A stretch of DNA of 64,000 nucleotides from Nemertoderma westbladi (Eukaryota > Animalia > Xenacoelomorpha), in contig JAUCBJ010007342.1 of assembly GCA_032718475.1 (NCBI GenBank), positions 28,948-92,947 of the forward strand. Reading direction: 5' to 3'. The position numbers and the translations under genes are program-made. Position 1 is the first letter of the stretch. Each line of letters starts with the position of its first letter. Shown one piece after another: positions 8,606 through 52,134 of the stretch. Below the pieces are notes generated by a model that was not told where the DNA came from, did no database searches, and was given only the letters and a program-made list of their open reading frames with translations.

Positions 8606-8738
8606 CGAGGCCCTGACCCAAGCTTCCTCAATAAATCTTTCCGCCGAATTTTCGAAATTGTGATTATGGATATTCGGGACAGGCGTCCTTACCTGAGGTC
8701 TATGTGGTATAGTCTCCTCCGATATGCGTACTCGTTGA

Positions 8739-27161: not shown

Positions 27162-27185
27162 CCTTTCATTGCGAATACGTAGATT

Positions 27186-34699: not shown

Positions 34700-36488
34700 T
34701 GTAAGGGTCCAGTAGTATACCGCTTACCAGATCCTAGTAACGATGTATCTTACTATGAGACTCTAGTAATGTATACGGGCTTGTACAGTATCTGACAACA
34801 AATCCCAGTCCAGGATATCTAAACAAACAGATATAGTACACAAACGACTACTGGCGAGGAACAGAGCCTTGTATCTATTCTATGTACGTGAGCGGGTCGA
34901 ATGCCTACGTACTAGACAGAAGGATACCTGTCCTCTAACCGGTGAGGCAGATGTACAGTTACAGTAACAGACCAAACTCACGGGAAAACAATCCCCGCGC
35001 AGCGAATCCTAACTATCACTGACAGTCCTAAATACAGTAACTTGCCGCGGTGTGATTTATATGGTTTATATACGAACTAGGTGGTTAACAGACCTAGTGT
35101 AACAATGCTGATCATCCCTGTCGAAATCAGCCTAAAGGTCGTGCCTAAATGTAACAATAACTGATCCCCCTGTACGAAATCAGTCTAAAAGGTCAGGCCT
35201 AAATGTAACAATACCGTTGTCCAGACAAACAACAGTTTAATAACGAAAGTGAAATACTCCTTATCTTGCCGCAACTAAATCAGATCCTAATTTTACAAAT
35301 ACAGATAATTTCTACCTAACGTAATGTATAGTACGCTATAGCTAGTAGAACTTTAAGGGCGATATGTTTTAGGGCGTGTGTGTGTGGGTGTGTTACAAAT
35401 AAAACAATTTCGTGTAATTCCTTTTACTAGGTTTTAATGATTTTCTGACTAAAATGATACCGTGCGCTAGCTACTAAAATAAACTAGTCGCGTTTGTAGA
35501 ACTTTATACTCACGAATGACGTCAAAGCTCTCTCCTTCCTATCCACAACCCAATGGGCAACCACAGTGTTAGTAACTACACCCGTGATCGGCACTAATAC
35601 CAGATTCTGGTTGTAAGATAAGAATAGGGGTTAATCGCTACCGTACGTTAGCTGATCTGGTATACTAATTTAATTCTAGAACTTTGTTGCTGCGGTAGTT
35701 AGCAGCAATACCTATCAGTACGTGGCAAGGCGCGGTAGGATATTAATAAACCTCCCTAGGCCAAGCAGTGTGCCGGTAGCAGAAATGCTCCTTGCCTGAT
35801 CAAATAGCTAACTCCAGACAGGGGGGGGGGGGGGGTACTAATGTACATTCTACAAAGCGAACCGGTACCAAACAGTCAGTGCTATGAATCACTAAATTAT
35901 GGAACGTATGCTGTCCGTACCTAATATGTACTCGCGTACTGACGAATGGCAATAGTTCGCACCTGTAGGAAGTACAGGTTAACCCAGGGATTCGTAGGAC
36001 TTGACAAAGGGGGGGTGTCTGGATATAATTATTTGATCCTAAATTTGCGGCGTCCAGTACGGTGTCACGCTTACCCTGATCTATAGGTCTTACGGCGGGC
36101 AAGGGCGTCGAACAAAGTCTTACCTTCTCACAAAGCGGGCGCTGCATAGCAAGTGGAGTATTTCGAAGGGGCAAAGGGGGTGCGCGGTCAATCCAAATGT
36201 GGGCGCTAGCGTGTTGTGGACATCCCTTCCCTGCGTTGCTTACGGCCTAACGATCTAGGCTGCCATCTCCCTGGTGTTCGGCTGTCCCGAAGTCGGACCA
36301 AAAGAAAACATGTCAGGAAATTGCAGTATATTTACAGTTTTACAAAAGGATTTATCAAATAAAGTTTCAACAAGAAACCGAATTAACTAATTTTACAAGA
36401 ATAAACGATATCAGGATGATAACATGAGTAAGGAGTGATAACCGAAGGCAAACCGGCCTTTTATACTAGAAATTGCACATGGAAACTA

Positions 36489-36690
36489 AACAGAATTTTC
36501 CACAGCTTCACAATTGAGCAATAAAGTGCTTCGTGCTCTATGATTGGCCCAGCTCATCGTTCAACGCAGTCCGGCCCTTACACTAATCTGGGACATGGAA
36601 TCCTAACAGAATTTTCCACTGCCTCACATTTGAGCAATAAGATAATTTATGCCCTATGATTAGCCTGGCTCATCATTCGCTACGCTGTAC
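36489..36690. promoter_or_regulatory. About 116-bp tandem duplication with CCAAT-like boxes in U3 (also in the 5' LTR)
   Basis: aacagaattttccac...tgagcaataa...ctatgatt(g/a)gc...gctcatc occurs twice; the enhancer role is inference. Confidence 0.5.
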
Positions 36691-36750
36691 GCTTCTCATT
36701 GGCCTACCAATTAGCACCACACGAAAATAAATGGCCCCAAAATACAAATT

Positions 36751-36819
36751 TCCCGACTGGGATTCGAACTCGTAACCTACGTAATGTAACCAACGCCTTA
36801 ACCATCTGACCACTACGCC
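36751..36819 (-). other. tRNA-derived Pol III-like cassette inside the 3' LTR
   Basis: A box TGGTCAGATGG, B box GAGTTCGAATCC, TTTT about 10 nt downstream; acceptor and anticodon arms do not pair. Confidence 0.65.
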
Positions 36820-36963
36820 ACGAGAGTACCTAAGGGTTTTATGTGTACAAATATGAATAGGCATATTACATTACTGTAACTTAATCAAAATACGTCGGAT
36901 TTTCAAAAGTTTTTACGTTAAAGTTAAACTACAAATGCTACCTTATAGTGAAATAATTCATCA

Positions 36964-36973: not shown

Positions 36974-37588
36974 AAAACAGTAAGTAAGACTGTTTTCACC
37001 AATCGAAATATAAAATATTTACAAACTATTTCTAAATTTACTAGTAGGGCCTAAAATATAAAATATAATCACTATCTAATTATTGCATACTTAATATTGC
37101 AGATACGGCGTAAATACAATCGATCGTACATATAAATACAAATTTACGAATTAACTTTAGTGCCTAAAATACAAAAAAAAGGCTTTCGGTTATCAAGGTA
37201 AACAAATTAAACAAATCAGAACAAATAAATCAAACAAATCAAACAAATAAATCAAACTCTTTCGATAAATCTTTATATATTGTAAATATACATAATAAAC
37301 CTTCACCAAATTAAATCTGTCCAAATATAATATAAACATAATGCGCTAATAACTTTCAAATGAGTCCTCCTGACGATCTAAAAAGTTCGTCCTGCTGGTC
37401 TGGATATCTTCTCCTGAGCACTAATTGCTAACGGTAGGCTCGCAAGCCTTCCTTCCATATCTCGCTCCTCCAAACCCAACATTCAAACATAATGTCCAAT
37501 ATAAATATCCAAATAAAATATCCAAATATAACATCCAAATATAATATCCAAAATCGGTAGGCTCGCAAGCCTTCCTTCCACTCGCTTC

Positions 37589-39358
37589 CTATTCCTTCGC
37601 TGAGCGGGCTCGTCCACGTCCTCTAGTGCGATTGGGGGGTGGTCGAGGTCGAACTGGGCTCGGACTTCGGCGTCGAGTCGTCGGTGGTTCCAAAACGCTA
37701 GGAAAGGGGACGACGGGAGTTTCGCACATCCGTCGTGCGCTCAATCCTCTAAATCCTCGTCCGATTCCAACTGTCGACTTAACATCGGATCGAGTTTCTA
37801 CAACGCTAGGAGGAAGTCGAAAGGGTAGGACTGTTCCGTCCGTTGACACCTCGCTCTCTGACGTCGTTTGAATCCTAATGGGTTCAGTCAAAGCGTATCC
37901 TGTCCCTCCGCGTGGTTCTCTAGCAAGGGAAACCGTGCCCCGAGTCATCCGGATTTGCGACTTCGATGTCGTCCTCTCGGCGACATTCACTATCTTCTTA
38001 ATCTCTTGTCCGGCCTTCTGGGCTTTGAGTATACGAAATTGCTGATCATCCTGTGGGTGACGCGTCTTCTCCGCTAACGGCGTGGCCTTGAAGCCAGTCT
38101 CACGCAAAACGTCGGTCTCGTCCAGAATGCACGAGGTTACGCGTTTGTGATAAAATGCGCTCCGGTATGCCCAAGCTATCGAATGCCAGGCTCCTCGATT
38201 CCGCTGTTCAACTCGCAGTTTATCGAATTCTCCGGCGGTAATCTTGTTCACCACAGTTTGAAAGTTCCAAGTATTCTTGTTGTCCGGGTGCACTTGTAAG
38301 AAATAGTCCCGCACAACTTTGAATCCACTGTCCAACGGCAATATATCCAATACCTCCAACAATTCATCGTACTGAGGCATAGCCGATACATATCCTTCCT
38401 TTGACATTATGAGAGGGTTTACGGCCCAAAATCCCAAATGTGCTCTCATAGGGAAGCGGCGTCGCTGCGTCGATACATGCTCGTCTGCTAGATCCTCCCA
38501 ATGGTCGAATAATTGTCGAACGATTTTAACTGACATGTGCTCATAGGGGACGTCTCTAAGTTGACATTCAGATGCCCTATGGCCCTTAATATTACAATAA
38601 ATACACTGCGCCACGAAACGCCAGCAAGTGTAGAAAGTGTGCGAACGTTGATCCCCGCACCAGTTGCATACTAGATCCGGTAGAGATATGTGCTTCGCTC
38701 CGCACTTCTTTGCGTGATGGCCAGTTGCTCCACATCTGCCACATATAGTGTTGGCAGGATACCAAACTCGCTCATAGATGAGGTCTCCGATGGGGCGAGC
38801 GCTACCGTCCACGTGATAATTCTCATCATCCGGGTCAGTCGGTATGTTCGTCTCCGTAGGTTGTACACAAACCATGGCATCGCTTTTCTCTAACTCGCGT
38901 ATCTCAGTTCGCGTCTTCCTTGGAAGGTTCTCTTCTATTTCTATGAGTTGCCGTAACGGTTCGTCTATTAGCGCCAACTCGGTCGGATCCACATCGTCAT
39001 GATGGGCGGTAGGCTCGCGAGCCTTCCAGGATCCTTCCGGGCGTTCGAATTCCGCGTGGCGTTCCCCGTCATAGGGTACTAACGTTAACATCGACGGTCT
39101 GTCAACTAGACTTCCCGCGTGAGTGAGATAGACGTCCCTGAAAACGCTAAGTCCCGCTCGCGTGAAAACTTCGCAGTGCGCATCGGTGTTATAAAAGGGT
39201 TGGAGAAATCGTCGGAATACATCAGTATGCGTCCTTCCTCCATCGTAAAAGGTATGTCCTTCGCCAAGACATAACGGGTGTCGCTTTAAGGTTCTGGATA
39301 CTACGTCCGCGATGAAACAAACGTTAACCGAAGATTCTATCGCTAAATAGTATTGCAA
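37589..39358 (-). CDS. ORF3 of element 2, C-terminal part: ExoIII-like motif, three CCHC zinc knuckles, basic R/S/P tail
   Basis: QYYLAIE; CGRCGATGHHAKKC, CNWCGDQRSHTFYTC, CIYCNIKGHRASEC. In frame with 41344..39374 across a single TGA. Confidence 0.82.
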   Translation of the reverse strand: MQYYLAIESSVNVCFIADVVSRTLKRHPLCLGEGHTFYDGGRTHTDVFRRFLQPFYNTDAHCEVFTRAGLSVFRDVYLTHAGSLVDRPSMLTLVPYDGERHAEFERPEGSWKAREPTAHHDDVDPTELALIDEPLRQLIEIEENLPRKTRTEIRELEKSDAMVCVQPTETNIPTDPDDENYHVDGSARPIGDLIYERVWYPANTICGRCGATGHHAKKCGAKHISLPDLVCNWCGDQRSHTFYTCWRFVAQCIYCNIKGHRASECQLRDVPYEHMSVKIVRQLFDHWEDLADEHVSTQRRRFPMRAHLGFWAVNPLIMSKEGYVSAMPQYDELLEVLDILPLDSGFKVVRDYFLQVHPDNKNTWNFQTVVNKITAGEFDKLRVEQRNRGAWHSIAWAYRSAFYHKRVTSCILDETDVLRETGFKATPLAEKTRHPQDDQQFRILKAQKAGQEIKKIVNVAERTTSKSQIRMTRGTVSLAREPRGGTGYALTEPIRIQTTSESEVSTDGTVLPFRLPPSVVETRSDVKSTVGIGRGFRGLSARRMCETPVVPFPSVLEPPTTRRRSPSPVRPRPPPNRTRGRGRARSAKE

Positions 39359-39373
39359 GATTATCCGCGGAGG

Positions 39374-41344
39374 TCAAGTAATCGCCCAATACACGCAACC
39401 TCGCCACTTCAACTGTGACTCGAACTCATTTACGCCGGGGGTATCTCCCTCTCCGTATACGTCCGTGTATTTGTTCCTCTTACTCTCCTTGTAATCCCAA
39501 CTGAACATCAGATATGAGATATAACCCGTCCCAGTTTTTAGCGTGTTATACTCTCTAAAGTATCCTTGCTCAATAGCCCAAAGCAACAATGGTCTAGTAT
39601 CCACGTATGGCGTAGGCAATCGGTCCTCTTCCGTGGGCATCCCTGCAAAGTCGCTAATGAGGTCATCCCGTACACCGGATCCGATCTTGACGATGCTCTT
39701 ATCCAACACAACGTCTCGCACGGCCTTTGGCAACATCCTAGCTTCTATGCTACAAGCCAGGTCCATGGATTTAACTATCCGTTTTATCATCGCGTGTCTT
39801 TGCGTCGTTCCTTCCGGCATAGGCATCTTCCTATCACTCCTCTGTCGGCTGAAGACATGTAACACGCCATCTGGTGCTCTAATCTGTATCGTCTTTGAAG
39901 TGAGGCTTTGCTGATGGCTTCCTCCTTCATTATCGTAAAACATATATCCATTCTCTTTCAGAGATCGGCTAGTCACGTCCCAATCGTCGAGTAAATCATC
40001 GGTAGGGTTCCAAATTCTCCCGATCGACTTTTCATCATCGAAACTAATAGGTTTACCAGTCCAATTGGTCGCGATATCGGTGTCGGTCTCAAACGTCCCA
40101 ACTCCGATCCATAATCGAATCGTTTTCGTCAGATATCCTCGCAAGATACAAGGTGCGATATCCGTCCCCGCGCGATCCACTTCCTTAAAGTCCGTGATAT
40201 GTGGAGGCACGTTGCGTACGATTTTTTGAACTATTACTTTACGCAACTCGGTTGATTCTAACACATCACCGAAGGTGACCGATGGGAGGAAATCCAGGTT
40301 CGAGATGATCTCCGGGTGTTCAACTATAGGGATCTCGTAAGTTGTCTCCTTCCGGGTCGGTATACTAATAGGAAAACTAGTTGGTCTCGCAACCGGTACT
40401 ATTGCTCCAGTAGAATGGGGCTGAGGTTCTCGCGTCATCTCAACGTGAGGTATCTGTAGTCTCTGCGACAAACGCTGAGCAAAGGTGATACTATCGAAGA
40501 GCTCGGGTGTCATCTCCTTGGGTTCGGTTTGATCGTGGGATATCCAATAGAATGGTAGGCTCGCAAGCCTTCCGCCGAACTCCTCGATCTCGCCTTTCTC
40601 GTACGCCTTGTACGCCCTGTAGAGGCTCAAAGCTTCCCGTTTCTCTTGTGTCGACTTGTTAGACTCGTCCACTACCATGCTGTAGACGTCTGGTTCGACT
40701 AATTTAGGTTCGTAAATAACGATCTCACCCGCGTTCGGTCCACTCATCTTAAATGAATGATACGGATTTGTCAAAGGGTATCCGCCTTCTTGGTAACGTA
40801 GACTTTGGTGGTGTGAACATCGCGCTAATATCGGCTCGGGGTTCTCCGAATTCAACCGCATAGGAATCGCGTTGTCTTGCTCGCGCATACACGCTCCACA
40901 TTTATAAAACAGTTTGTATACGGAAAACGCGTCCTTGGTCTCTGGATCCGCTCCTCGAGCGCGTCTATAAAGATGCATTCCTTCAAATTCGTCTCTAGCT
41001 GCAGGTAAAGGTTCGTTTACCGTCAAATATTGCAGCGTATGATACAATCGGCGTATTTCGGTGTCTGGATCCTCGCAAATGTCGCTAGCGTCGCATAACG
41101 CATCGTAGGGATATAACGCATTGTATTCCGCGCGTAATTCCTCCGTTCTTTTGTTGTATGCGTCCAACCGCTGTCGCGTAACATTCGGGTCCGCCTTGGA
41201 TTTAGCGAGCTTGGCCGTACTCCTAGCCATACTCTCCACTCCAAACACACTAAAGTTTTTAGCTCCATAACGATTGAATGGCGCCTGGTGCTCCTGTTCT
41301 TGCGTAAACCCTTGACGTAACTCTTTATACATCTTCTCCGCCAT
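39374..41344 (-). CDS. ORF3 of element 2, N-terminal part: CxxC...CxxH domain plus DEDDy-type (WRN/EXD/RNase D-like) exonuclease
   Basis: ExoI FYDNEG; LPKAVRDVVLDKSIVKIGSGVRDDL fits the LP..L..ll.d..i.KvG.gi..D ExoII pattern; YVDT; homologous to ORF 1798..2. Confidence 0.82.
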   Translation of the reverse strand: MAEKMYKELRQGFTQEQEHQAPFNRYGAKNFSVFGVESMARSTAKLAKSKADPNVTRQRLDAYNKRTEELRAEYNALYPYDALCDASDICEDPDTEIRRLYHTLQYLTVNEPLPAARDEFEGMHLYRRARGADPETKDAFSVYKLFYKCGACMREQDNAIPMRLNSENPEPILARCSHHQSLRYQEGGYPLTNPYHSFKMSGPNAGEIVIYEPKLVEPDVYSMVVDESNKSTQEKREALSLYRAYKAYEKGEIEEFGGRLASLPFYWISHDQTEPKEMTPELFDSITFAQRLSQRLQIPHVEMTREPQPHSTGAIVPVARPTSFPISIPTRKETTYEIPIVEHPEIISNLDFLPSVTFGDVLESTELRKVIVQKIVRNVPPHITDFKEVDRAGTDIAPCILRGYLTKTIRLWIGVGTFETDTDIATNWTGKPISFDDEKSIGRIWNPTDDLLDDWDVTSRSLKENGYMFYDNEGGSHQQSLTSKTIQIRAPDGVLHVFSRQRSDRKMPMPEGTTQRHAMIKRIVKSMDLACSIEARMLPKAVRDVVLDKSIVKIGSGVRDDLISDFAGMPTEEDRLPTPYVDTRPLLLWAIEQGYFREYNTLKTGTGYISYLMFSWDYKESKRNKYTDVYGEGDTPGVNEFESQLKWRGCVYWAIT

Positions 41345-41384
41345 CGTATACGAATATATGCGGTTACATATCGTTACGTTTCTA

Positions 41385-41415
41385 CTAGATGAAGCACAAA
41401 ATAGAGGTTAGATGT
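41385..41415 (-). promoter_or_regulatory. Candidate 3' splice site upstream of ORF3
   Basis: Sense ACATCTAAC branch point, pyrimidine tract, TAG/TAG. The same ACATCTAAC...CAG occurs at 1882-1860 in element 1. Confidence 0.6.
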
Positions 41416-42077
41416 GAGGTGACTCCAGAGTTTGTTGGTTTTTGGCTCAACTCTGCTCTAAACCCCAACCCATTTTGCCTAATGATTTCGGGTTCGCGTG
41501 ATTTCGCACTGGCTCCTAATCCAAAATTGTGCCGATAAAAAACGAATTCCGGGTAAACTAGCCGCGAGTCTAAAATACTCACCTTTTAATTTCCCAAACT
41601 ACGTTTCCCAAGAAAATAATGCAGTCGAGAATTAATTGGTCAAAATAATAGTAGACACGACTACGTAGAACAAGACCGATTTTCTTTTCCAAAAAAAAAT
41701 TTATCGGTAGGCTCGCAAGCCTTCCATCCGCTCTTGTCCTCCCCAATTTTAATTTTATCTAGCTGTATTCTAGAATTTGCTTTCACTGGAGAATCGTTTT
41801 TCTTAAATTTAAATCCAAATAAATGGATTTGTCTAATAATTTTTGAAAAATTGTCTCACTTGTGGGTTCCAAGTGGAATTCCATTCCTACTGTACACACA
41901 ATCCCGCTCCTATGTGATACATAAGGGTACTACCCTCCATGTTCACGTATAAAGACAATGGAATTCCACCGCTGTCTCTATCTACAGTGAAGAGGATTAC
42001 AAATGCACGTACAGTAATACAAATACAAATAACTAAAATACAGTAGGTCTATGTGGCGGCCAACAAAGGTCCCACAT

Positions 42078-43922
42078 CTATTTACTAATATTGGGTGGAG
42101 ATTTGTAGTCTCCTGTCTCGTTTCTAGTCTCCTCAAGGAGTACGAGACGTTGTACAGGTCTGTCTACGGTACGTCCGTCGATAGTCCGTACAGTAACTGT
42201 CCTCACTACGCCAGATGTAGGGTGCGTGGTCAAAATGACTCCAGTCAGCCAAAACCGTCTTCTCAGATTAGCTTCAGCCAATAAGACATGGTCACCACGT
42301 CTTAAACACCGGGTATTTAGATACCAAGAGGTTCTGGTCGAAATAGAGGGCAAATAATATTTCTGCCATATTTCCCAGAATTTATTTGCAAGCAATTGAG
42401 TGATTTTCCAAGCCTTGTTGCCGTATCCGTCACTATCAACGGGTACCGAAATGGGCAACAATGTCGTCGGCGCCTGCATAAGCAGGTGCGCTGGTGTCAA
42501 GGCAAACTGTACGTCGTTATTGTCTGGGATCAAAGCGATCGGTCTGGTATTTAAGATTGCTTCGATTTCTATTAGTAACGTCGTTAGTTGGTCGTCTGTC
42601 AAGATGTGTTGCGTCGGTACGACTTTAGCCATAGCTGTCTTTATTGAGCCAATCAGCCTTTCCCAAACGCCGCCTCTCCACGGACTGTCTGGAGTATTAA
42701 AAACCCAAACAATACGGTGAGGACGTAGTTCCTCGGAAATCTGGTTTTGGTCCAATTTTCTCAAAGCTCTGGTTATCTCGTTCCGTGCACCCACAAAGTT
42801 TGTCCCTTGGTCGCAGTATATGGATTTGACCAATCCACGTCTAGCGATAAATCGCCGTAAGGCTAGGATAAAGGCATTGGTGGACAAGTCTGTCACTCGC
42901 TCTATATGGACAGCTCTGCTGGCCATGCAAGTGAAGATCAATCCCCAACGTTTTACCTGTACCCTTCCGCGTTTCGCGATTATGGGTCCAAAACAGTCTA
43001 TCCCTGTCTCAGTGAAAGGGGGTCTAAACGCCTGTAATCTAGCTAATGGTAGTTCACTCATTTCTTGGTGTCCTATCCTCGCGTGCACCTTCTTACAAAT
43101 AATACAGTTCCGTGTTACCGAACTCAGTGCCTTACTAGGTCTAATCAGTACAAACCTCGAGCGTAAGTGTGATAGACAGTGGTGTCTACCTACGTGTTTG
43201 AGTTGTACATCTGCGTCCAGTATCATAGCGCGCTGTAATTCATGGTGTTGCGGTATGATGATAGGATACCTAAAGTCAAGTGCAAAGTCGATGTTTTGGA
43301 GTCTGGACTTGTGACAATGTAAGCCCCGGTAAATAATCGGACTCCAACTCAAAATCGGTGAAGACTTAATCTGTTTACCTTGTTTGATCGCTGTGAACTC
43401 TCGTGCGAAATATCGCAATTGATAATGTCTAATGATATCAACTTCACAGTGGCCAATTTCCTTTAAGGTAAGTCTTCTAGGAAAGTCGCGTTTGCCTCTG
43501 GCATATTGTCTCAATCGTTTGAGCCATGCTAACTTGCGGCACGCGTCAGTCCATGATCTAGTTAGGTTCACTATCCTGTCTACGTAAGTGTTAGTGACGT
43601 CATCGGGTAAGGTGTAGTCGTAGTGTGGATACTTGTCTGGACTTGGTAGGCCCACGGGCCTTCCGGTAGGTTTATCTGAGTCCCCAAGTACGTCAATCTC
43701 TACGGTCTTACCTTTGCCGTCCGCACCTAATGTGTCGACTGGCAGTAATGGTTTCAACTCTACAGTGTCAGTGTGTTCCTGTGAGCCTGTAAGCTTCCTA
43801 ACCTTAGTCACCACTTTACCTGTAGGTAAGTCAAGTACCTTCTTCGAGCGGAGTGTAATCCCTGTGGCCACCGCTTGTGTCCTTCTGGGCTCCTCCCCGA
43901 GGCGCACCCACGAGGCGGACAC
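42078..43922 (-). CDS. pol: Integrase of element 2 (separate ORF; frame open from 44072, no ATG before the zinc-finger region)
   Basis: CIIC; TGIDCFGP, YCDQGTNF, GGVWERLI; LNTRP; C-terminal LLEETRNETGDY shared with element 1. Confidence 0.92.
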   Translation of the reverse strand: MSASWVRLGEEPRRTQAVATGITLRSKKVLDLPTGKVVTKVRKLTGSQEHTDTVELKPLLPVDTLGADGKGKTVEIDVLGDSDKPTGRPVGLPSPDKYPHYDYTLPDDVTNTYVDRIVNLTRSWTDACRKLAWLKRLRQYARGKRDFPRRLTLKEIGHCEVDIIRHYQLRYFAREFTAIKQGKQIKSSPILSWSPIIYRGLHCHKSRLQNIDFALDFRYPIIIPQHHELQRAMILDADVQLKHVGRHHCLSHLRSRFVLIRPSKALSSVTRNCIICKKVHARIGHQEMSELPLARLQAFRPPFTETGIDCFGPIIAKRGRVQVKRWGLIFTCMASRAVHIERVTDLSTNAFILALRRFIARRGLVKSIYCDQGTNFVGARNEITRALRKLDQNQISEELRPHRIVWVFNTPDSPWRGGVWERLIGSIKTAMAKVVPTQHILTDDQLTTLLIEIEAILNTRPIALIPDNNDVQFALTPAHLLMQAPTTLLPISVPVDSDGYGNKAWKITQLLANKFWEIWQKYYLPSISTRTSWYLNTRCLRRGDHVLLAEANLRRRFWLTGVILTTHPTSGVVRTVTVRTIDGRTVDRPVQRLVLLEETRNETGDYKSPPNISK

Positions 43923-45050
43923 CTTTCCACCACCCCTGGGGCCAGTCTGACTGATGTTATTATCAGACCGGGCCGGAGGGTGGCCTGATGCTTCCCGGGT
44001 TCTGTTTTCGGTCCCCCGATCACACCAGCACAGCTCGTCGAACGTGTAGCCAGATGGGCGGCTACTGTCAACTTACTGTGGCCTGACTGTACATTGAGCC
44101 AACTCAAAGTATAACAAAGAGTCAACCGGCAGGTGGACCAGTCGATAGCGATCGAGCACCAAGGTCGCCCTTGGGCCTAACCGACGGTCTTGTCCCATGT
44201 GGGCTTGCGCTACCCAACATTGGAATTTTGACACGTTTTCACCTGCCTCGCCGGCAGTATTTAAAAAACAATACTGTCTGTAGCTCAAAAGCTACTGAAC
44301 AAGTAACCACTTACCAGTCACTGTACACGTGTACTCAACAGATGTTCACAAAATCAAGTACACAATGGTAAGCACAAAATCGAACACATACCATGCACAC
44401 ACAGAAGACAAAATCAGGAAAGACAAAATCGGGGTCAAATCAGAGGGGACAAATTGTATCGACCAAGTAGCAAATCGAGAGTACCTTATTTTACCGACAG
44501 GGTAAAATAACTTTGTGTGCACAAAGTATGCTGGGGCGCAGTAGAGATATGGTCCTACTAATACCAGCGGCGTCTTGTCCAACTGGCAAGGGTTCCCATA
44601 CCCACTCGCAGTGGCCACACATACAATCACGTGTACTCACGTACCCACAGCAACAGAAAACTCAAGACCCGACGGTTTTTCCAATGCCACCAAAGACCAA
44701 TCAGCTGAACATGGAGACAATAACATATAGTATCAAAAAAACGGAACAGCTGACGGTCAATGGAACCATCCAAGCCCCAAGCAAACTGCCACTGATCGCC
44801 CACATACAAAACATAGTTCACGCCACATGAGCCACAAATCACGCCATGCCACCACCCCTACTGTGTACAGGACTGGCAGTACGGCAACAGGCCGACTAGA
44901 CGGTACCACGGCACCATGGCAATTCATGGTTCGTTAGACACGAGGGCCTTAAGTATCTCCCTTGCACTTAGACGACAATTTAACGTGCCCCCGGACCCTC
45001 ACGAGTCCGCCGCCGCCTGCTAAAGGCACCCCTATAGAGACCTCACCTCT

Positions 45051-48000
45051 TTAGGTACCTCTGTCGTCCAAAGAAGTCAAATTTGGTACGTCTCTAAACG
45101 TCCGCTCCAATGGGTCTTCTAATGGAGTGTCTAGTAGACAGTCTGGTGAAGCGTCTGGTGAACAGTCTGGTGAGACGTCTGGTGAGACATAGCGCGGAAC
45201 ATCCGGCGAAATGTCCTGTCGTCGGTCCCAAAGTCTGTCTAGCGTAACTTCTGTCAGAAAGTCTGGTCTAAAATCTGGTAGACAGTCTGGTGGACAGTCT
45301 GTCGAGATGTCTGGTGAACAGTCTGGTGAGACGTCCGGTAGACATTCTGTCGAGAGTTCCATCAAACAATCTGGCGAACAATCCGGAGAACAATCTGGTG
45401 TCTCTTCTGGTGAATAGTCTGGCGAGTAATCTGGTGTACAATCCGGCGAAACGTCTGGTGAAATCTCCCGCGGAACATCCGGCGAAAGATTCGTACAAGC
45501 GTCTGGTCGAGTGTCTGGCGAGACGTCTGGCGTAATGTCAGGTCTGGCATCCAGGTCATCAGATTTCGTCCGTCCTTTTTTCCTCTTGACCTTGGCGTTG
45601 GCTTTCGCTTTAGACTTGACAACCTTGTCGAGTTTTATCTCGGCACCCTCTGGTATGGTGTTGGTTGTCGCGTCGAATAACGGTGGCCATTCGTCTGATG
45701 GTCGCTGCAGGAAATCGGGTCCTCTAAACCAAAAGGATTTATTGTCCGGTTTACAAAAGTCAAGTGGTTGCATCCCCCGTGACGCAATGTCAGCTGGGTT
45801 CAGCTTCCCTGGACAGTGACGCCAATCTTGTTTGAGCGACCGGTCTAGTATTTCAGCCCGTCTGTTGGCTACGAAAGTCTTGAACTCGAATGTTTCGTTG
45901 TTTATGTACCAAAGTACCAACGTCGCATCCGTCCAATATGTGACCTTCAAGTTAGCCTCCAGCTCGCGTTGAACTAGACTGACAATATCGGTGGATATCG
46001 TCCCGGCTTGCAGCTCCCCACGAGGTACAGTCATATACTTCAATGGCATTGTTCTAGCCCTTGAAGTAACGAGAGACACATCGTAGCTGTCCGATGTCAC
46101 TTGTCGTCTAAGGTATAAAGTAACCCCCAATCCATCCTTGCTAGCGTCACTAAAGCTGTGAAGCTCTAAATCAGCAGGAAAGGTGGTTTGCAAAGGAAAG
46201 TATACCCTTGGTATGGTATAGTCTTGTAGGAACGTCAGTTGGGCTTCCCAGTCCCTCCATCGCTCAGCTAACTTTTCTGGGATGGGATCGTCCCATTCCA
46301 GTCCGGCTTGCCAAATGCTGCGGAGTATGATCCTGGCATGTAGGATCACTGGACTAATGAAACACAATGGGTCATACAATCGACTCATAGTCGATAAGCA
46401 AGTCCTCTTAGTGAGAGGTCTAGTCTGGTCGTTGGACCTTACACGTACCCTAAAATTGTCGGTGTTAGGGTCCCAACTAAGTCCTAGTACTTTGGTCGTC
46501 GGCAGTGGTTCTAGGTCTAAGTCTAAATCACCTCCGCTACGATCCATCGGGTCAAATGAGTTCACCAGTTCGGGTTCGTTGGAAGCGAACTTCGTCAGGT
46601 GAAATCCGCCCTCAGCGAGACAATCCTGGAGTTGGTGTGCTACGGTTGTAGCGCGCTCCAAGGTGTCACAACTCTTGAGGCCGTCATCCACGTAGAAATC
46701 TCGTTCCACGGTCCGAACTACTTCTGGGTCAAATTGGTCTCGTCTGTCCAATGCTGTCTGCTTCAATGCGTACATGGTGCAGTTGGGGCTGTCCCTGGCT
46801 CCGAATACTCTTACCTGCATTTGGTAAGTTTCTGGCGGAAGTTGTAAGTTTCCGTCCGGATACCAAAGAAACCTCAAACTGTCCCTGTCCCGCTCCAAAG
46901 CCTTAACCTGGTGAAACATGGCCTCTACGTCACAGGTGAAAGCCACTTTGCGTTGTCTAAAATGCATTAGGACTCCCATGAGGTAATTATTCATATTCGG
47001 CCCGTCCATCAGTTCGCTGTTCATAGACATCCCTTGGTAAAGCGCAGCGCAGTCGTTGACTACACGCACCTTGCCAGGTTTGTCCGGGTGTCGAACAAAA
47101 TGATGTGGCAGGTAATATGTCTGGTCTGTAGTTACCTCAGGATTTAACATCCTAATGGCGTATCCCTTTTGGAGATACGTCTGAAGTTGTGCATTGTATT
47201 GCATATGGGCCGTCTCGTCTCGCAACAATCGCTGCCTTATTGATTTGAGTCGCCTCAAAGCAAGCGGGTAATTGTTAACGAGTTTTGGTTGTCCATCGCG
47301 CCACAACATACCAACCTCATAGTGGCCATTCGCGGTCTGGCGAATGGTATCTCTCATAATATTTAATGACCGTTTTTCCTGTTCTGACATAGCGGTCTCG
47401 TAACTACCGGGTTCTGCTGAGTCCTGTTCCAACCATTGTATGGTCCGTTCAGTCAGCAGTCGGTCAAGCGCTGCTTGCACTGCGCCATGGTCCTCGTCCA
47501 CGTCTTCGTCCGCTGCGGTGGCTAGTGTCAATGTGTCTGGTAGGCTCGCAAGCCTTCCGGTGTCACTAGTCGGCGTCGAATTGTCGTGCGGCGGTTTGAC
47601 AACTTCTTGATCTATCGGTAGGCTCGCAAGCCTTCCAAGATCAACGACCGGTGTCGAAGCCTGGTGGGTGGGGTCAATGACCTTCGGATTTTTCGGTAGG
47701 CTCGCAAGCCTTCCAAAATCCTCGTTCATCGAGTCATCCACAGCAACAACCCTCAGGTCTTCAGTAGTCAATACAACCTGGTCTACTGCAAGTAGTTGTA
47801 AGTCAGAGGTCCGTATGGTCGTGTCCAGATCGGTTACGTCAGTATCGGTGGCGTCTGCGTTAGTGACGCAAGTCTGTCGTAGTGCCGTCCGTACAATTGG
47901 ACCACGGGAGTGTGAAGGAGAATTATCTATCGTGTTAGTCAATAAACTACACGTACTCAAAACGTCGTCCTCCTGGTCACTTACCTCTAGTGAACGTATT

Positions 48001-51000
48001 GGTGCTCTAGTATACCAACCTATGGGAGTTCTACATGCGTAGGGGTTGCCCGCTGTAATAACAGATGGGCGTGTCTCCCATACCTGATGTAAGTTAAACT
48101 GGTCTGTCCCAATTAACATCGCAATGGAACGATAATTAACAGGACATTCCGGTATTCCAAGGTGTCGGAAATACTTACGATCTTCCGGAGATTGCTCTGG
48201 CACAGGGCCGAGCAAGTTACTAAAGTCCTTCGTAGCTGCAAAGGTCAAATTTCTTACCGGAAGTAATGAGCGCTCCTCCTTGCTGTGTTCCGCTTTGGAA
48301 AGAAGAGTGTCTAAAGTTAGTTTTACTCTTGTCACAGGAATCGCTCTCTTACCATGCATGCTGCTTACAGTATACTGAGCAGTCTTACCTTGACTCAAGT
48401 CCGTAACTACGTCGGCTACTTGTTCGTCGACATAGCTATGCGATGACGCAGAGTCTAAGATGGCGTATATACGCTTGCTCCCTCGGGTTCCGGTAATCTT
48501 TATAGGAATCACGCTAAACCCTTTCAATTGGTTCTGTGTGAGGAGCGTTATCGATGGCTGTTCCTCACCTGCATGCACGTAGAAAGTGTCGTCTTCCTCC
48601 TCGTCCTCGTCCGATGATCCTGACTGATCCATACAGTCGGTATAAAAGGTACGGATCTCGCGCGGCGCACGCTCCTTATAAAGCGCGTCGCATCTAGCCG
48701 CTTTATCTGGATGCTCTCGTCGAAAGCGTCTGGTCGGAGTATGACTGGTTGTGTGAAGCAACGCGTCATGGTTACGTCCACACAGAGAACATGTATCATC
48801 GCTCGGGCAATCCTTCCGGACGTGTCCTGGCTTCATACATCTCCAACAGGAATCTAGAGATCGGATTTGGAGTCTCCTTTCCTCGATCCCTAACTCTTTA
48901 AAAGCGCGACATCCACGTAGTTTATGTCCGCTATGGTTTCTGCCGTTCCGCTCGCAGTATGAGCATCCCACAAAGTCCGCCGGCAACTGTTGTCGTGGCT
49001 GCGTGGTGCCGATAGGCGTCAGAACTTTAGAAGTCTCAGTAGGGGTGGCGTAAGTAACGGCTTTCGCGTTCGTCGGAAACGGTTTAGTCCGATTCGGCGC
49101 AGAAACAGTTATCCCTTCCGCCGCGATATGGTGATCGGTATAGTTCGATCGAGTCTCGATCACGGCCTCCCGTGAAATAAGTTGATAGACATCGGTGAGT
49201 TTTAATAACCCTCCGGCCTCTTCGCGCTGGTACTCGATGCGTCGCCATTCTCGTCGTAGTCGATGATGAAGTCGACCGATTATTCGAATGAGAACCGTCG
49301 GTGCGTTAGCGTACTCGAGTTGTCCAATGGACCGTAAAGTCCCTATAGCGTTCTTTATTTCGTCCGCGAGTCGTAAAAGGTCGATCGGTCTCGAAATGTT
49401 GCCTCCTCTGCAGAGGTCTTCAATAATGGATTTAGCCATGGCGACATTACCGCCGTAAATCGAATACAAACGGTCGTACGCCAACTCAAAGGCATCGGGA
49501 ACTCCAATAAAGGTTTCCGCTAATCGTTTCGGCTCACCAGACAGAACTTGGAGCAAGTAGTTAAACTTCTCCGTCGAGGTGAAAGCACACTTAGCGATCT
49601 GGGACTCTACGTAGTCTACCAGTGTGCGCCAGTGTTTCGCGTTGCCAGAGAACTTCGGCGGTTGCTGTGCCGGTAATCCGTGTCTAGCCGCGAATTTCGC
49701 AATCTCGCTAACTAAATCCAACTGTCCGCGTCCCTGTTCGGCGGCGTCGTCCAGTCGCTCCCTTCCGCGCGTTGTTCGTCGGTAGGAATTATTAACGGGA
49801 TCTTCTTCTCGATGTGTCGGAGTCCGTCTAGTCTCCTGTTCTCTCCTCGGTGGTCGATGTTGTCTAGGTTGTTCCAACTCCACGCTGGTCCGTGATCGAT
49901 CCGACGGTTGCGCTTCGAGTCGTTCTTCGAGTTGAGCTATTCTGTCCGTCATCTCGGTGAACTGTTTAGCGCTGATCGTTTCCGCTGGTTTCAACGTGGG
50001 TTTCTGTTGGGGTGTTTCTCGTGGAGGATTGTCGATATAGGGGTTCGTCGATCTCTCCTCTCGTTTGCAATCTTCCGCCGCTCCAGTACGGAATATTTCC
50101 CGTTCCGTCGACTCCGAGTCACTAGATGAATCGCTGTCGTCCGGATAAGGTGGTTGGCGGGTTCGTGTCCGGCGTATTATCCTCGATTTCGTCCGTTGCG
50201 GTCCGGAATCTACGGCTCTCCGTTGTTCGGTAGGCTCGCAAGCCTTCCACGAAGTCGTAGGTCTCGCTATACGTTGTCCGATCCCGTGGGTACTACCCAC
50301 CTCCATCCTCCTTCGTAGTTCGGTAGGCTCGCAAGCCTTCCACGAAGTCGTAGGTTGCGTCGAACATTGTGTCAACGGTCGAGTGAAATAGTCGGGTTTC
50401 GTAGTCGGTCTGTAAATAACTGGATTTGCACAGCACGTCACAGGTTTAACTTGTAATGGTTTACTCACCTGTTTAATGGTCATAAACGCAGGTTCCTCTC
50501 TTCCTACAAGTAGACTACGACTTACTGTAGGTGGACTAGTAATGTTACCTGCTAAAATTGGCGATGAAGTCGCCCTAGGTTGCGGTATTTCCGTCACAAC
50601 AAACCTGTTGCCTTGCGTCGAACGCACAGGCGTTATTTCCTTAGGTTTCGTAACGAAGACCGGTTTTATCGGAGTCGTGGGTTTGAGCATAGGAATAACT
50701 TGGGGAAAACGTTTACAGTAATCCTCGACGAACTCCTCTCCTTGATCTATCGCTCCCACGCTTCCTTCCTCGATCCGCTTCTGTATTCCGCGATATCGAG
50801 CTTCCATACGATCCAGGGCAGACAAGTCGTGTCCAGTTCGCGATCTCATAGATCTATCTCTCGCGTCGAGTTCGAGGTCCGCTTGCGCGTTCGCTGTCTC
50901 GCGCGATCTTCGATTCAATTCGAACTGTAGTTGCATCTCCCTTTCGCGTCGATCTGCATCCTGTTGTTGTGCCGCTAATTCCGCTTCCTGTATAGCTAAT

Positions 51001-52103
51001 CGAGCGTTTATTTGCCGCGCCTCCAACTTGGCACGAACGTCGGATGCTGCTTTCTGCCGTGCTAACTCGTCGGCTGCCGCTTCTCGCACTAAGTCCTCCT
51101 CCAGTCTGCGCATTTCTGATGCTTCGAATTCAGCTTGCGCCTTGAGTTGTGCAATTCTTGCCTTGTCTTCTCTACGTTGTTTCTCTCCTTCGATGGCGAT
51201 CTGTGCCATCTGGTGTCGCGCTTCTTCCTCGGCGACTTGTTGTCGGCGTGCAACCTCCTGTTGTTGTCGAGTAATTCCAGACGCTGTTCTACTAACGTCG
51301 CCAACGTCGCCAACGTCGCTCCGTACGCTAACGAACGATCTATCCAGTGGTGGATGTTGGTAGGCTCGCGAGCCTTCCATAGTGAGAACTTCCGTCGTCC
51401 CTCGCGGTTCGACTTCCGGTTCGTCGATCGGTACGCCGCATCTACGAAGAAAATTGGTCAGCGTTTCCAACCTTCCGTCCAGGCAGTAGAGTTCTTCTTC
51501 CTCTTCGGGTTGTAACAACGCGTCCGAAACTGACTCACCTAGCAGTTGGTCGAACTGCTCCTGTTGAGCCAATCTTATCACCGACTTAAACTGGATAAGG
51601 CTTTCTCTCGCACTTACCAATTTATCTACTATCTTTACCTGAGTAAAGTTGTCGCCACGCAACTCTGCAAGTTCGTGCAAACCTTTAAGTTTATCTACGG
51701 AGGCATGTACCCTACTTTCTATCCTTACCTGTAAGGTGTAGAACTCGTATCTCGACATCGGGGCGGTTAACTCGCGTAAAACGCGAAAACCTTCTCCGAG
51801 GTTCCGAGTAATCTGGGCCATGTGTCCTCCTATACTTCTAATAACGTTCTCCTGGCTTCCAGTCGAACTTACCATGTCCGGTTCCCGTGATCTAGTCTGC
51901 GGGACGGTAAGGAAATCTTCGATCCTGCCGTCGCCACGCGTTGCGGCTTCCGGTATTTCCGTTCGGGGTACCGGCGACGCAAGCGGTGTGACATCGGTGG
52001 AATCTCGGGTTCTCCTTCTCGGTTCGTCTACTGTCGATCTGTCCGGGTCGCACGAGTCATAGTCGGTAGGTGGGTATCTCGTCGAATGGGGTGTGTCACT
52101 CAT
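45051..52103 (-). CDS. pol: Gag-PR-RT-RNase H polyprotein of element 2 (2350 aa) with a D-x-S-P repeat tail
   Basis: Coiled coil; CSYC...HKLRGC, CWRCMKPGHVRKDC, CSLCGRNHDALLH; ILDSAS; YLPHHFV; FYVDD; FSDAS; HCPGKLNPAD. Confidence 0.95.
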   Translation of the reverse strand: MSDTPHSTRYPPTDYDSCDPDRSTVDEPRRRTRDSTDVTPLASPVPRTEIPEAATRGDGRIEDFLTVPQTRSREPDMVSSTGSQENVIRSIGGHMAQITRNLGEGFRVLRELTAPMSRYEFYTLQVRIESRVHASVDKLKGLHELAELRGDNFTQVKIVDKLVSARESLIQFKSVIRLAQQEQFDQLLGESVSDALLQPEEEEELYCLDGRLETLTNFLRRCGVPIDEPEVEPRGTTEVLTMEGSRAYQHPPLDRSFVSVRSDVGDVGDVSRTASGITRQQQEVARRQQVAEEEARHQMAQIAIEGEKQRREDKARIAQLKAQAEFEASEMRRLEEDLVREAAADELARQKAASDVRAKLEARQINARLAIQEAELAAQQQDADRREREMQLQFELNRRSRETANAQADLELDARDRSMRSRTGHDLSALDRMEARYRGIQKRIEEGSVGAIDQGEEFVEDYCKRFPQVIPMLKPTTPIKPVFVTKPKEITPVRSTQGNRFVVTEIPQPRATSSPILAGNITSPPTVSRSLLVGREEPAFMTIKQVSKPLQVKPVTCCANPVIYRPTTKPDYFTRPLTQCSTQPTTSWKACEPTELRRRMEVGSTHGIGQRIARPTTSWKACEPTEQRRAVDSGPQRTKSRIIRRTRTRQPPYPDDSDSSSDSESTEREIFRTGAAEDCKREERSTNPYIDNPPRETPQQKPTLKPAETISAKQFTEMTDRIAQLEERLEAQPSDRSRTSVELEQPRQHRPPRREQETRRTPTHREEDPVNNSYRRTTRGRERLDDAAEQGRGQLDLVSEIAKFAARHGLPAQQPPKFSGNAKHWRTLVDYVESQIAKCAFTSTEKFNYLLQVLSGEPKRLAETFIGVPDAFELAYDRLYSIYGGNVAMAKSIIEDLCRGGNISRPIDLLRLADEIKNAIGTLRSIGQLEYANAPTVLIRIIGRLHHRLRREWRRIEYQREEAGGLLKLTDVYQLISREAVIETRSNYTDHHIAAEGITVSAPNRTKPFPTNAKAVTYATPTETSKVLTPIGTTQPRQQLPADFVGCSYCERNGRNHSGHKLRGCRAFKELGIEERRLQIRSLDSCWRCMKPGHVRKDCPSDDTCSLCGRNHDALLHTTSHTPTRRFRREHPDKAARCDALYKERAPREIRTFYTDCMDQSGSSDEDEEEDDTFYVHAGEEQPSITLLTQNQLKGFSVIPIKITGTRGSKRIYAILDSASSHSYVDEQVADVVTDLSQGKTAQYTVSSMHGKRAIPVTRVKLTLDTLLSKAEHSKEERSLLPVRNLTFAATKDFSNLLGPVPEQSPEDRKYFRHLGIPECPVNYRSIAMLIGTDQFNLHQVWETRPSVITAGNPYACRTPIGWYTRAPIRSLEVSDQEDDVLSTCSLLTNTIDNSPSHSRGPIVRTALRQTCVTNADATDTDVTDLDTTIRTSDLQLLAVDQVVLTTEDLRVVAVDDSMNEDFGRLASLPKNPKVIDPTHQASTPVVDLGRLASLPIDQEVVKPPHDNSTPTSDTGRLASLPDTLTLATAADEDVDEDHGAVQAALDRLLTERTIQWLEQDSAEPGSYETAMSEQEKRSLNIMRDTIRQTANGHYEVGMLWRDGQPKLVNNYPLALRRLKSIRQRLLRDETAHMQYNAQLQTYLQKGYAIRMLNPEVTTDQTYYLPHHFVRHPDKPGKVRVVNDCAALYQGMSMNSELMDGPNMNNYLMGVLMHFRQRKVAFTCDVEAMFHQVKALERDRDSLRFLWYPDGNLQLPPETYQMQVRVFGARDSPNCTMYALKQTALDRRDQFDPEVVRTVERDFYVDDGLKSCDTLERATTVAHQLQDCLAEGGFHLTKFASNEPELVNSFDPMDRSGGDLDLDLEPLPTTKVLGLSWDPNTDNFRVRVRSNDQTRPLTKRTCLSTMSRLYDPLCFISPVILHARIILRSIWQAGLEWDDPIPEKLAERWRDWEAQLTFLQDYTIPRVYFPLQTTFPADLELHSFSDASKDGLGVTLYLRRQVTSDSYDVSLVTSRARTMPLKYMTVPRGELQAGTISTDIVSLVQRELEANLKVTYWTDATLVLWYINNETFEFKTFVANRRAEILDRSLKQDWRHCPGKLNPADIASRGMQPLDFCKPDNKSFWFRGPDFLQRPSDEWPPLFDATTNTIPEGAEIKLDKVVKSKAKANAKVKRKKGRTKSDDLDARPDITPDVSPDTRPDACTNLSPDVPREISPDVSPDCTPDYSPDYSPEETPDCSPDCSPDCLMELSTECLPDVSPDCSPDISTDCPPDCLPDFRPDFLTEVTLDRLWDRRQDISPDVPRYVSPDVSPDCSPDASPDCLLDTPLEDPLERTFRDVPNLTSLDDRGT
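45130..45550. repeat. Degenerate 12-bp coding tandem repeat (DVSP/DCSP)
   Basis: gtctggtgaaca / gtctggtgagac units, about 35 copies. Confidence 0.85.
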
Positions 52104-52134
52104 GTCTTATTATATACGTCAAGTACGGGTAATA

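Follow-up and report, generated by a model that had tools for sequence, protein, structure and literature searches.

Organisation of the locus

The window, the whole stretch of 64,000 nt analysed here, comes from Nemertoderma westbladi (assembly GCA_032718475.1, contig JAUCBJ010007342.1, positions 28,948–92,947 of the forward strand). Its features of interest belong to two LTR retrotransposons, element 2, for which paired LTRs are shown, and element 1, whose 3' end lies outside the window (Table 1). A LINE and a third BEL element are also present. The domains of element 2 follow the order PR-RT-RH-IN with gag and pol of BEL/Pao type, and all 120 of its best pol matches carry PF05380 (40–46% identity, with one exception at 31%). 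Like known BEL/Pao elements, it combines a DUF1759 gag, a Pao peptidase/RNase H and a DUF5641 integrase in this order (de la Chaux and Wagner 2011, PMC3118150). The additional frame, ORF3, follows the integrase and precedes the 3' LTR, and its placement within a BEL/Pao element, proposed in a preliminary description of this DNA, is borne out by the DUF1759, Peptidase_A17 and DUF5641 matches and by the enclosing TG...CA LTR pair, which is 97.25% identical (28 substitutions over 2247 sites, K2P 0.013). No target-site duplication was found for element 2, whose flanks differ, the 3' flank being a 36-bp satellite; recombination in this copy may be the cause.

In total, element 2 spans 20.7 kb, a figure that takes in both of its long LTRs as well as the 1.19-kb pol insertion missing from other copies. 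BEL/Pao elements have a median of 7.4 kb and a maximum of 22.8 kb in the family survey, and the LTR length of element 2 is within the family range (maximum 2,427 bp; PMC3118150). The earlier label 'giant' is generous, since the internal region of 16.1 kb is below the 20-kb internal-region limit by which the term is defined in PMC6431247. The family is abundant, with 33,928 contigs of sequencing run X1 on element 2. A quick RT tree of 40 rows, built without BEL/Pao reference families, groups element 1 with element 2 (SH-aLRT 100), and the branch leading to this clade is long and falls among BEL/Pao elements of invertebrates.

Table 1. Features of elements 1 and 2, in window positions
Feature	Positions	Strand	Details
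3' LTR, element 2	34700..36963	-	TG...CA; purine-rich GGAGCGG immediately before; adjoins 36-bp satellite
12 hairpins, element 2	37433..51378	-	pattern search; 20 nt, GGAAGGC-Y-YGYG-R-GCCTACC; starts 37433, 37556, 39008, 40554, 41706, 43645, 47539, 47617, 47695, 50229, 50322, 51359
ORF3, element 2	37589..41344	-	open-frame analysis; 1251 codons, one TGA at codon 657 (39374-39376)
Basic tail of ORF3	37592..37777	-	Arg/Ser/Pro-rich; residues 1190-1251, 15 K/R vs 3 D/E
Three CCHC zinc knuckles of ORF3	38564..38743	-	starts at residues 868, 893, 914
Likely DEDDy/WRN-like domain of ORF3	39275..40000	-	D471, E473 (ExoI), D561 (ExoII), candidate ExoIII Y666-x3-E670
Candidate zinc site in the N-terminal domain of ORF3	40808..40900	-	C-x2-C-x23-C-x2-H; kept in element 1
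Integrase, element 2	42078..43871	-	DUF5641 2.9e-18, Integrase_H2C2 weak
Insertion of ~1.19 kb dividing pol from integrase, element 2 copy	43872..45056	.	contigs of runs X1, X2 and X4 join across
gag-protease-RT-RNase H, BEL/Pao type, element 2	45051..52106	-	Pfam DUF1759 3.7e-09, Peptidase_A17 1.4e-39
Primer-site position, element 2	53099..53108	-	exact 10-nt complement of LTR 54366-54375
5' LTR, element 2	53109..55381	-	2.27 kb with TG...CA ends; TATA-like box at 54883
ORF3, element 1	2..1798	-	cut by window edge before ExoIII; 41% identical to element 2 ORF3 over 612 residues
Hairpins, element 1	1010..10644	-	CCAAACC/GGTTTGG-type stem, YGYG loop; starts 1010, 2117, 4204, 6409, 9028; weaker near 10626
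Likely 5' LTR end, element 1	12206..12219	-	CCCTTACA, like element 2; then 10 nt complementary to 12899-12908

ORF3 is a selected gene that does not encode an envelope protein

The single long frame noted earlier proves genuine: it contains one stop, whereas its base composition predicts about 64 and the two alternative frames have 55 and 80. The TGA is private to the copy in the window, and programmed read-through was ruled out because other copies carry a sense codon at this position. The contigs of a further run, X5 (presumed to be an RNA run and carrying the label of another organism), do not cover the middle of ORF3 and are uninformative there; one of them begins exactly at 34700, the 3' LTR boundary.

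The N-terminal Cys/His domain matched no family in searches that included Pfam and ESM Atlas. The three knuckles and basic tail could be located as previously described; the knuckle at residue 893 is a variant, CX2CX5HX4C, and Pfam zf-CCHC scores on the knuckles are below cut-off (E 0.026–0.043). The highest 19-residue hydropathy window reaches only 1.48 and coincides with the helix proposed for ExoIII, which makes a membrane anchor improbable. Pfam finds no env family in ORF3, and its identification as env was rejected, as in the preliminary description, with no transmembrane segment by hydropathy and no fusion-protein family.

That the gene marks a lineage of elements agrees with its presence in two diverged members of one clade. 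Between them the exonuclease-like core of ORF3 is 54% identical, close to RT-RH (57%) and integrase (51%), and four-fold sites in the core agree at 6 of 23, silent sites being saturated. Among copies, 39 variant rows of the core were examined, and 29 of them are silent, giving a pN/pS of about 0.09. At the level of sequence, these comparisons show ORF3 to be under purifying selection as an accessory gene of the BEL/Pao clade, its linkage to pol resting on elements 1 and 2 of the window. A junction that skips 3062 bases of ORF3 was found in runs X2 and X4 (one contig each), which indicates that ORF3-deleted copies have spread.

The exonuclease-like domain

The middle of ORF3 probably adopts a DEDDy/WRN-like fold of the WRN/EXD2/RNase D kind. 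As in the PF01612 family (WRN-exo/EXD2/MUT-7/Nibbler), an ExoI D-x-E, the next two strands, an ExoII of the form LP...K-x-G-x-G-x3-D and a V-D motif occur in order, with ExoI D-x-E and ExoII Asp in the order and spacing correct for DEDDy nucleases; unlike that family, ORF3 has long insertions and identities of 12–22%, matches nothing in Pfam and lacks a persuasive YAA-x-D ExoIII. When ORF3 is aligned by MAFFT to 68 PF01612 exonucleases from bacteria, the only invariant columns are D471, E473, G555 and D561. An ExoI–II half profile from bacterial PF01612, picked after inspection of the data, as was the hairpin pattern described below, gives ORF3 a score of 24.5, where shuffles average 6.0 ± 2.9; none of 500 shuffles and none of 120 BEL polyproteins reached the ORF3 score, an outcome unchanged under three gap settings; the score of element 1 ORF3 was matched by 1–4 of 500 shuffles. 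With the ExoII block as query, the two ORF3s rank second and third of 626 targets.

Standard searches were blank. No exonuclease match to ORF3 was found in Pfam, NCBIfam, PHROGs, PDB sequences or ESM Atlas, the last being blank also for the element 1 core and the N-terminal part of element 2 ORF3; hmmsearch gave E-values of only 0.19 and 0.53, HHalign gave 4%, and viral and mixed profiles did not separate ORF3 from shuffles (29–112 of 400). No homologue was found by word-index search among proteins of near and shorter length, nor in metagenome contigs, viral contigs or plasmids. An HMMER scan of residues 331–731 against 1.84 billion representatives returned a single match, to a repeat protein, which was set aside as spurious. 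These blanks, together with the two insertions of about 35–50 residues that the profile fit requires, would suit a chance likeness, with selection acting on a nucleic-acid-binding ORF3 protein of some non-DEDDy fold. The ordered ExoI–II match above every shuffle and BEL polyprotein, the invariant D, E, G and D, and the ExoII ranks of both ORF3s make this decidedly improbable.

An unbiased two-sequence AlphaFold model reached a pLDDT of 31, and a fold search from it was uninformative. A family-seeded model has a core pLDDT of 85–93 and places strands 2 and 3 on TIQIR and VLHVF, residues aligned to gaps in its input alignment; it matches EXD2 with Z 9.7 (rmsd 6.8, 126 aligned), a comparison that is circular.

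The names of the motifs are those of the preliminary description. ExoI (FYDNEG, residues 469–474) and ExoII (KIGSGVRDD, 553–561) are supported by the profile, but ExoIII (YLAIE, 666–670) is not: the ExoIII block had no positive placement on ORF3, the YLAIE register ranked third at −4.9 bits, and it offers Glu where Asp is expected. The seeded model draws Y666-x3-E670 as a helix (pLDDT about 70). ExoIII is thus no more than a candidate, and the protein a putative nuclease.

Comparison with known systems

The Juno and Vesta lineages of bdelloid rotifers are gypsy-like. In line with the earlier mention of bdelloid rotifer elements, Juno, Vesta and Terminons carry a DEDDy ORF3 (Rodriguez et al. 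2017, PMC5408684). In the available text of that study, the Juno/Vesta frames share with ours a DEDDy-type ORF in the env position, no membrane segment and an altered catalytic motif, their motif being DEED (PMC5408684) as against D-E-D plus an uncertain E here; a further difference is that our protein has 1251 aa with a Cys/His N-terminal domain, three knuckles and a basic tail. The host element differs too, being BEL/Pao here and of the Juno/Vesta lineages there.

The order of an exonuclease-like domain followed by CCHC knuckles recalls TbRND of Trypanosoma brucei, a 3'–5' exonuclease with CCHC fingers that hold RNA, a pairing its authors call 'very unusual'; TbRND is a host mitochondrial enzyme with four fingers that trims U-tailed guide RNAs, according to the available text (PMC7797062). 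ORF3 has no sequence match to it. A DEDDy ORF3 had also been attributed to Cer1 of C. elegans, which did not hold up: in the available text of the paper on its CERV protein, 'exonuclease' has 0 occurrences, no dispersed hairpins are mentioned, and the ORF of this Gypsy/Ty3 element is described as lacking obvious homology beyond Caenorhabditis (PMC10309623).

For BEL/Pao, we found no report of a DEDDy ORF3 in literature searches of limited reach, and the main text of the family survey, as available, uses 'exonuclease' 0 times (PMC3118150). None of the best 120 pol relatives has PF01612 annotated in its polyprotein, the portion covered by this comparison.

Dispersed hairpins with a shared loop

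Both elements carry short hairpins on the sense strand, 12 in element 2 and 6 in element 1 against 0.22 and 0.15 expected. The YGYG loop is common to both and the stems are family-specific. Those of element 2 occupy all three reading phases plus non-coding DNA, and none was found in its LTRs, nor in the window's LINE or third BEL element. In ORF3 the loops of the two elements share an alignment column, and their positions also correspond within integrase, the PR-RT linker, gag and the spacer. G is kept at loop positions 2 and 4 in every hairpin, and each element has one compensatory stem pair. Three G.U pairs favour the sense RNA; of three hairpins folded, the opposite strand was clearly weaker in two (−5.6 vs −9.9 and −6.3 vs −9.3 kcal/mol) and slightly weaker in the third (−9.9 vs −10.4 kcal/mol). 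No matching paper on dispersed retrotransposon hairpins was found, as judged by title and abstract. We regard the hairpins as predicted RNA structures which the ORF3 protein may recognise; gag, which also has knuckles, could be an alternative reader.

The motifs are near-palindromic and might instead be DNA sites, with ORF3 proofreading cDNA or processing its ends while an oversized genome is reverse-transcribed. DNA is indeed a substrate of DEDDy domains of the WRN and Pol A types (PMC5408684, in the available text), and element 2 has roughly three times the median length of BEL/Pao elements (PMC3118150), but the G.U pairs and loop asymmetry favour sense RNA, ORF3 and RT are unfused, and ORF3-deleted copies have spread, which together make such a role very improbable indeed.

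ORF3 might also be a counter-defence factor, as the preliminary description suggested, one that would shorten or degrade piRNAs or siRNAs which the host directs against the element. Nibbler, a host DEDDy enzyme, trims piRNAs (PMC13269885, in the available text), and the abundance of the family would accord with such a function; the element-specific hairpins are left unexplained by it, and the seeded model is no nearer to Nibbler (Z 7.1, in a circular search) than to other DEDD enzymes. We consider this improbable.

An unusual primer site

BEL/Pao elements are expected to have a tRNA primer-binding site after the 5' LTR. In both elements TGG is absent after the 5' LTR end, so that there is no tRNA-type site, and ARAGORN and Rfam find no tRNA in the LTR. 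The primer-site position instead holds 10 nt that could pair with the LTR of the same element, a length reached in element 2 by 26 of 2000 LTR shuffles and 0 of 40 control 20-mers, and in element 1 by 29 of 2000 shuffles, with 3 of 40 control 20-mers likewise reaching 10 nt. From this we infer that the primer site of element 2 is self-priming-like, with its own LTR as the putative source. An origin of the primer from an intron end was discarded, elements 1 and 2 being inconsistent with each other.

A possible role for ORF3 in RNA maturation

We tentatively read ORF3 as a selected gene with a likely DEDDy fold, whose product, by prediction, uses its zinc knuckles and basic tail to bind RNA of its own element and probably trims RNA 3' ends; the combination as a whole is possible rather than probable. 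The protein would be made from a sub-genomic message, and its knuckles would bind the G's left exposed in the YGYG loops that recur along the genomic RNA, the family-specific stem distinguishing one family from another. Within this RNP the nuclease domain might mature or clean a 3' end, for instance that of a tailed genomic RNA or of a primer derived from the element itself. ORF3 would act in trans, because copies without most of it have spread.

The same domains would serve an RNA adaptor in which the DEDD domain is inactive, a pseudo-nuclease on the hairpins that exports, localises or protects unspliced genomic RNA in the manner of Cer1 CERV, HIV Rev, Egalitarian, EXD1 or Maelstrom. The unconfirmed ExoIII, with Glu in the Asp position, and the spread of hairpins over the entire internal RNA are in keeping with this, as are the need for the env-position ORF of Cer1 in genomic RNA export (PMC10309623) and the status of Maelstrom and EXD1 as inactive DEDD derivatives (PMC5408684), both taken from the available text. 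It does not account well for the conservation of D471, E473 and D561 in both elements across saturated silent divergence, nor for the lack of variants at codons 471, 473, 561, 666 and 670 among the 40 rows listed of 99; rotifer ORF3s with the altered motif DEED are, moreover, still considered possibly active in the available text of PMC5408684. We judge the adaptor unlikely, if deserving of real weight.

Extended to the clade, the trimming model would describe BEL/Pao elements with RNA handling of their own, in which an active exonuclease-knuckle protein reads a YGYG barcode of shared loop and family-specific stem and matures the RNA, including an LTR-derived primer that replaces tRNA; this wider picture is quite unlikely as it stands.

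New here are the hairpins with a shared YGYG loop and family-specific stems at matching positions, and the 10-nt stretch complementary to the LTR in place of a tRNA-type primer site. Since 2017, retrotransposon ORF3s resembling nucleases have been on record solely as sequence annotations, with no substrate assigned, and the present one is accompanied by candidate cis-acting partners, the hairpins and the self-complementary primer site. Short RNAs and a single protein domain would thereby suffice to test what a retrotransposon exonuclease acts on. If the reading is true, BEL/Pao joins the groups with nuclease cargo, and unrelated LTR lineages would seem to have recruited DEDD domains more than once.

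ORF3 and its setting in a BEL/Pao element

Between the integrase and the 3' LTR of element 2, a minus-strand BEL/Pao retrotransposon, lies ORF3, a frame of 1251 codons with a single internal TGA at codon 657. One stop compares with about 64 expected, and the other frames contain 55 and 80. In a preliminary description ORF3 had been taken for a DEDDy exonuclease carrying zinc knuckles; its frame and all of its motif positions were recovered when frame and motifs were checked. On the 5' side, a domain search found DUF1759 and Peptidase_A17 in a gag-PR-RT-RH frame, and DUF5641 in the integrase. These domains, together with a Pao domain in all of the best 120 relatives of the RT-RH region (identity 40-46% except one), confirm the BEL/Pao setting. 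Named relatives among the 120 are mostly from cnidarians and sea urchins, with a mussel and a pseudoscorpion also represented.

All three frames are enclosed by a 2.27-kb repeat with TG...CA ends, whose two copies differ by only 28 substitutions over 2247 sites, so the insertion is fairly young; no target-site duplication was found at its flanks. At 20,682 bp, element 2 is at the upper end of the surveyed BEL/Pao range (median 7,382 bp, maximum 22,762 bp in the accessible part of PMC3118150), but with an internal region of 16,144 bp it is not 'giant', as had been claimed, by the 20-kb internal-region limit in the accessible text of PMC6431247. At the RNase H end, element 2 carries a 12-bp coding repeat (SPD-x units), and in element 1, a related element at the window start, a 21-bp repeat accompanies a frame change in the same place. 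Both LTRs contain two tandem 118-bp units upstream of the TATA box, and a tRNA-like stretch that may be a Pol III promoter or what is left of a SINE. This stretch contains motifs resembling the A-box and B-box, and no tRNA was called there by ARAGORN or Rfam.

Features of the window
Feature	Position	Remarks
Element 2 ORF3	41344-37589	minus strand
Tandem LTR units	54863-55096	about 75% alike
tRNA-like stretch	55170-55243	and matching part of 3' LTR
12-bp coding repeat	45090-45570	element 2
Primer-site stretch	53031-53115	element 2
Insertion in pol	43872-45056	1.19 kb; X2 depth about 10x flanks
Third BEL/Pao pol	60159-63998	distant; 31-33% identity to elements 1 and 2
Non-LTR retrotransposon	25167-32841	endonuclease and RT (domain search); before it, a 1545-codon frame containing a Ulp1/Peptidase_C48 domain (E 5.6e-08) and a 30-bp coding repeat
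15/17/32-bp satellite	14469-20069	about 5 kb; 280-bp inverted block adjoins upstream end of element 1
36-bp satellite, two arrays	23708-24851; 33059-34699	either side of LINE; second adjoins 3' LTR of element 2
336-bp inverted repeat pair	21306-21641; 22772-23102	96% identical; possibly the ends of a DNA transposon or MITE

Evidence for a DEDD fold

No exonuclease match to ORF3 was found in Pfam, NCBIfam, PHROGs, PDB sequences or the ESM Atlas, and no relatives in the protein and contig collections searched. Because these standard tools were blank and a two-sequence AlphaFold model failed (pLDDT 31, best fold-match Z 4.3), reference exonuclease sets were built by a pattern scan that kept 151 of 221 loci (79 bacterial, 72 viral), with PF01612 present in 44 of 44 tested. 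HHalign gave 4%. In local HMMER, the bacterial profile ranked the two ORF3s second and third among 626 targets, with E only 0.19 and 0.53.

When the whole domain was aligned with cheap gaps, ExoI fell on D471/E473 and ExoII on D561, at a score reached by 1/400 shuffles and 0/120 BEL polyproteins; at a second gap setting 0/400 shuffles reached the score, but ExoI was misplaced. In this whole-domain comparison, scores with the viral and mixed profiles lacked significance. With an ExoI-II half profile, picked after the whole-domain result was known, the score of the element 2 ORF3 was reached by none of 500 shuffles or 120 BEL polyproteins at three gap settings, and that of element 1 by 1-4/500 and 3-13/120. 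When ORF3 was aligned by MAFFT with 68 bacterial proteins, the invariant columns were exactly D471, E473, G555 and D561. An alignment-seeded model reaches a core pLDDT of 85-93; it has fold matches to EXD2, RNase D, WRN and Nibbler, a circular result since the seed was the exonuclease alignment. The only detail free of this circularity is that strands 2-3 fall on residues that had been aligned against gaps. The DEDDy assignment is supported for ExoI and ExoII, but ExoIII has no positive placement (Y666-x3-E670 is in third rank). We consider a DEDD fold very probable and, set against the invariant columns, another fold unlikely. Given the DEDD fold, we lean slightly towards an active nuclease. 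An adaptor with a dead nuclease domain, which would sit easily with the unplaced ExoIII, is a possible but weaker reading.

A selected gene in a damaged copy

Element 1 begins near 14,470 and continues to the window edge, where its ORF3 is clipped before ExoIII. The two ORF3s are 41% identical over 612 residues; identity is 54% in the ExoI-II core, 57% in RT-RH and 51% in integrase. A quick tree of 40 rows (three window elements and 37 of the best 120 RT-RH relatives, without reference families) groups the two elements as a single clade with a long branch. Four-fold sites in the core match at 6/23, near chance, and among the listed core variant rows of element 2 copies 29 of 39 examined are silent (pN/pS about 0.09, with the break row left out, 59 further rows outside the count, and rows not independent events). 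This conserved core and the excess of silent rows argue that ORF3 is a real, long-selected gene. The third BEL/Pao element has no ORF3 match within its stretch.

The element 2 copy is damaged and its family is not. Codon 657 is a sense codon in nearly all contig depth (29 contigs from sequencing run X1, 26 from X3, 13 from X4 and one from X2; X1 and X3 are one sample, and one of the three studies is possibly the window's source). Contigs from three runs join across the pol insertion, which is probably a repeat of its own, given its depth relative to the flanks, and in contigs from two runs a 3062-base part of ORF3 is absent. The 33,928 X1 contigs on element 2 show an abundant, varied family and are not a copy number.

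Dispersed hairpins and the primer site

A 20-nt near-palindrome occurs 12 times in the internal region of element 2, in sense orientation only, in each of the three codon phases as well as in non-coding DNA; in element 1, another palindrome is present in five strong copies and a weak one. The stems are wholly different between the elements, and the loop is YGYG in every copy. Sense-strand hairpins number 12 and 6, where 100 shuffles of each gave 0.22 and 0.15, the pattern having been defined from the data in which it was counted; the LTR, the neighbouring LINE and the window's part of the third BEL element contain none. Loop positions share an ORF3 alignment column, lie four columns apart in integrase, and also match in the PR-RT linker, gag and the IN-ORF3 spacer. 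A single compensatory pair is present in each element, and element 1 contains three G.U pairs that favour sense RNA. CpG decay of CGCG could have given rise to the loops, but the sense strand shows only TpG forms, so that G is retained at positions 2 and 4. In HIV, the nucleocapsid knuckles hold the GGAG loop by G2 and G4. Unpaired purine loops are bound by retroviral Gag, according to the accessible text of PMC12789967. The hairpins described here could be read by either Gag or ORF3.

TGG is absent after the LTR end in both elements. The 10 nt after the element 2 LTR are the exact complement of LTR positions 54366-54375 (26/2000 shuffles; 0/40 controls), and in element 1, whose LTR end was provisionally placed via CCCTTACA, common to both elements, a different 10-mer pairs with 12899-12908 (29/2000 shuffles; 3/40 controls). 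As a self-priming signature this is suggestive only. In element 2 the LTR-end and primer-site stretch CCTTACA-GTAGGAAGTA recurs 68 bases downstream in the leader, where it pairs again with the LTR site at 54366-54375.

Possible function and significance

The simplest joint account, plausible if short of probable, casts ORF3 as a protein that binds the element's own RNA; the zinc knuckles and basic tail would dock on it, and the DEDD domain would act on RNA 3' ends. The self-complementary primer site is a possible substrate. TbRND, as described in the accessible text of PMC7797062, likewise joins exonuclease and RNA-docking finger domains. Counter-defence against piRNAs is an unlikely role for ORF3, and DNA proofreading a highly improbable one.

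DEDDy ORF3s are described in the rotifer Juno and Vesta elements and in Terminons (accessible text of PMC5408684), and a review, in its accessible part, describes the DnaQ-like domain as a familiar accessory in LTR elements (PMC6338049). A Cer1 exonuclease, mentioned in the preliminary description, finds no support in the accessible text of the CERV paper (PMC10309623). No report linking BEL/Pao to an exonuclease was found in the literature searched by terms able to join both, and an earlier catalogue entry in Repbase, GyDB or Dfam is possible. A nuclease-like ORF3 is of a kind already known from LTR elements; what appears to be new is its presence in BEL/Pao, its orphan sequence and the candidate cis-elements that accompany it.
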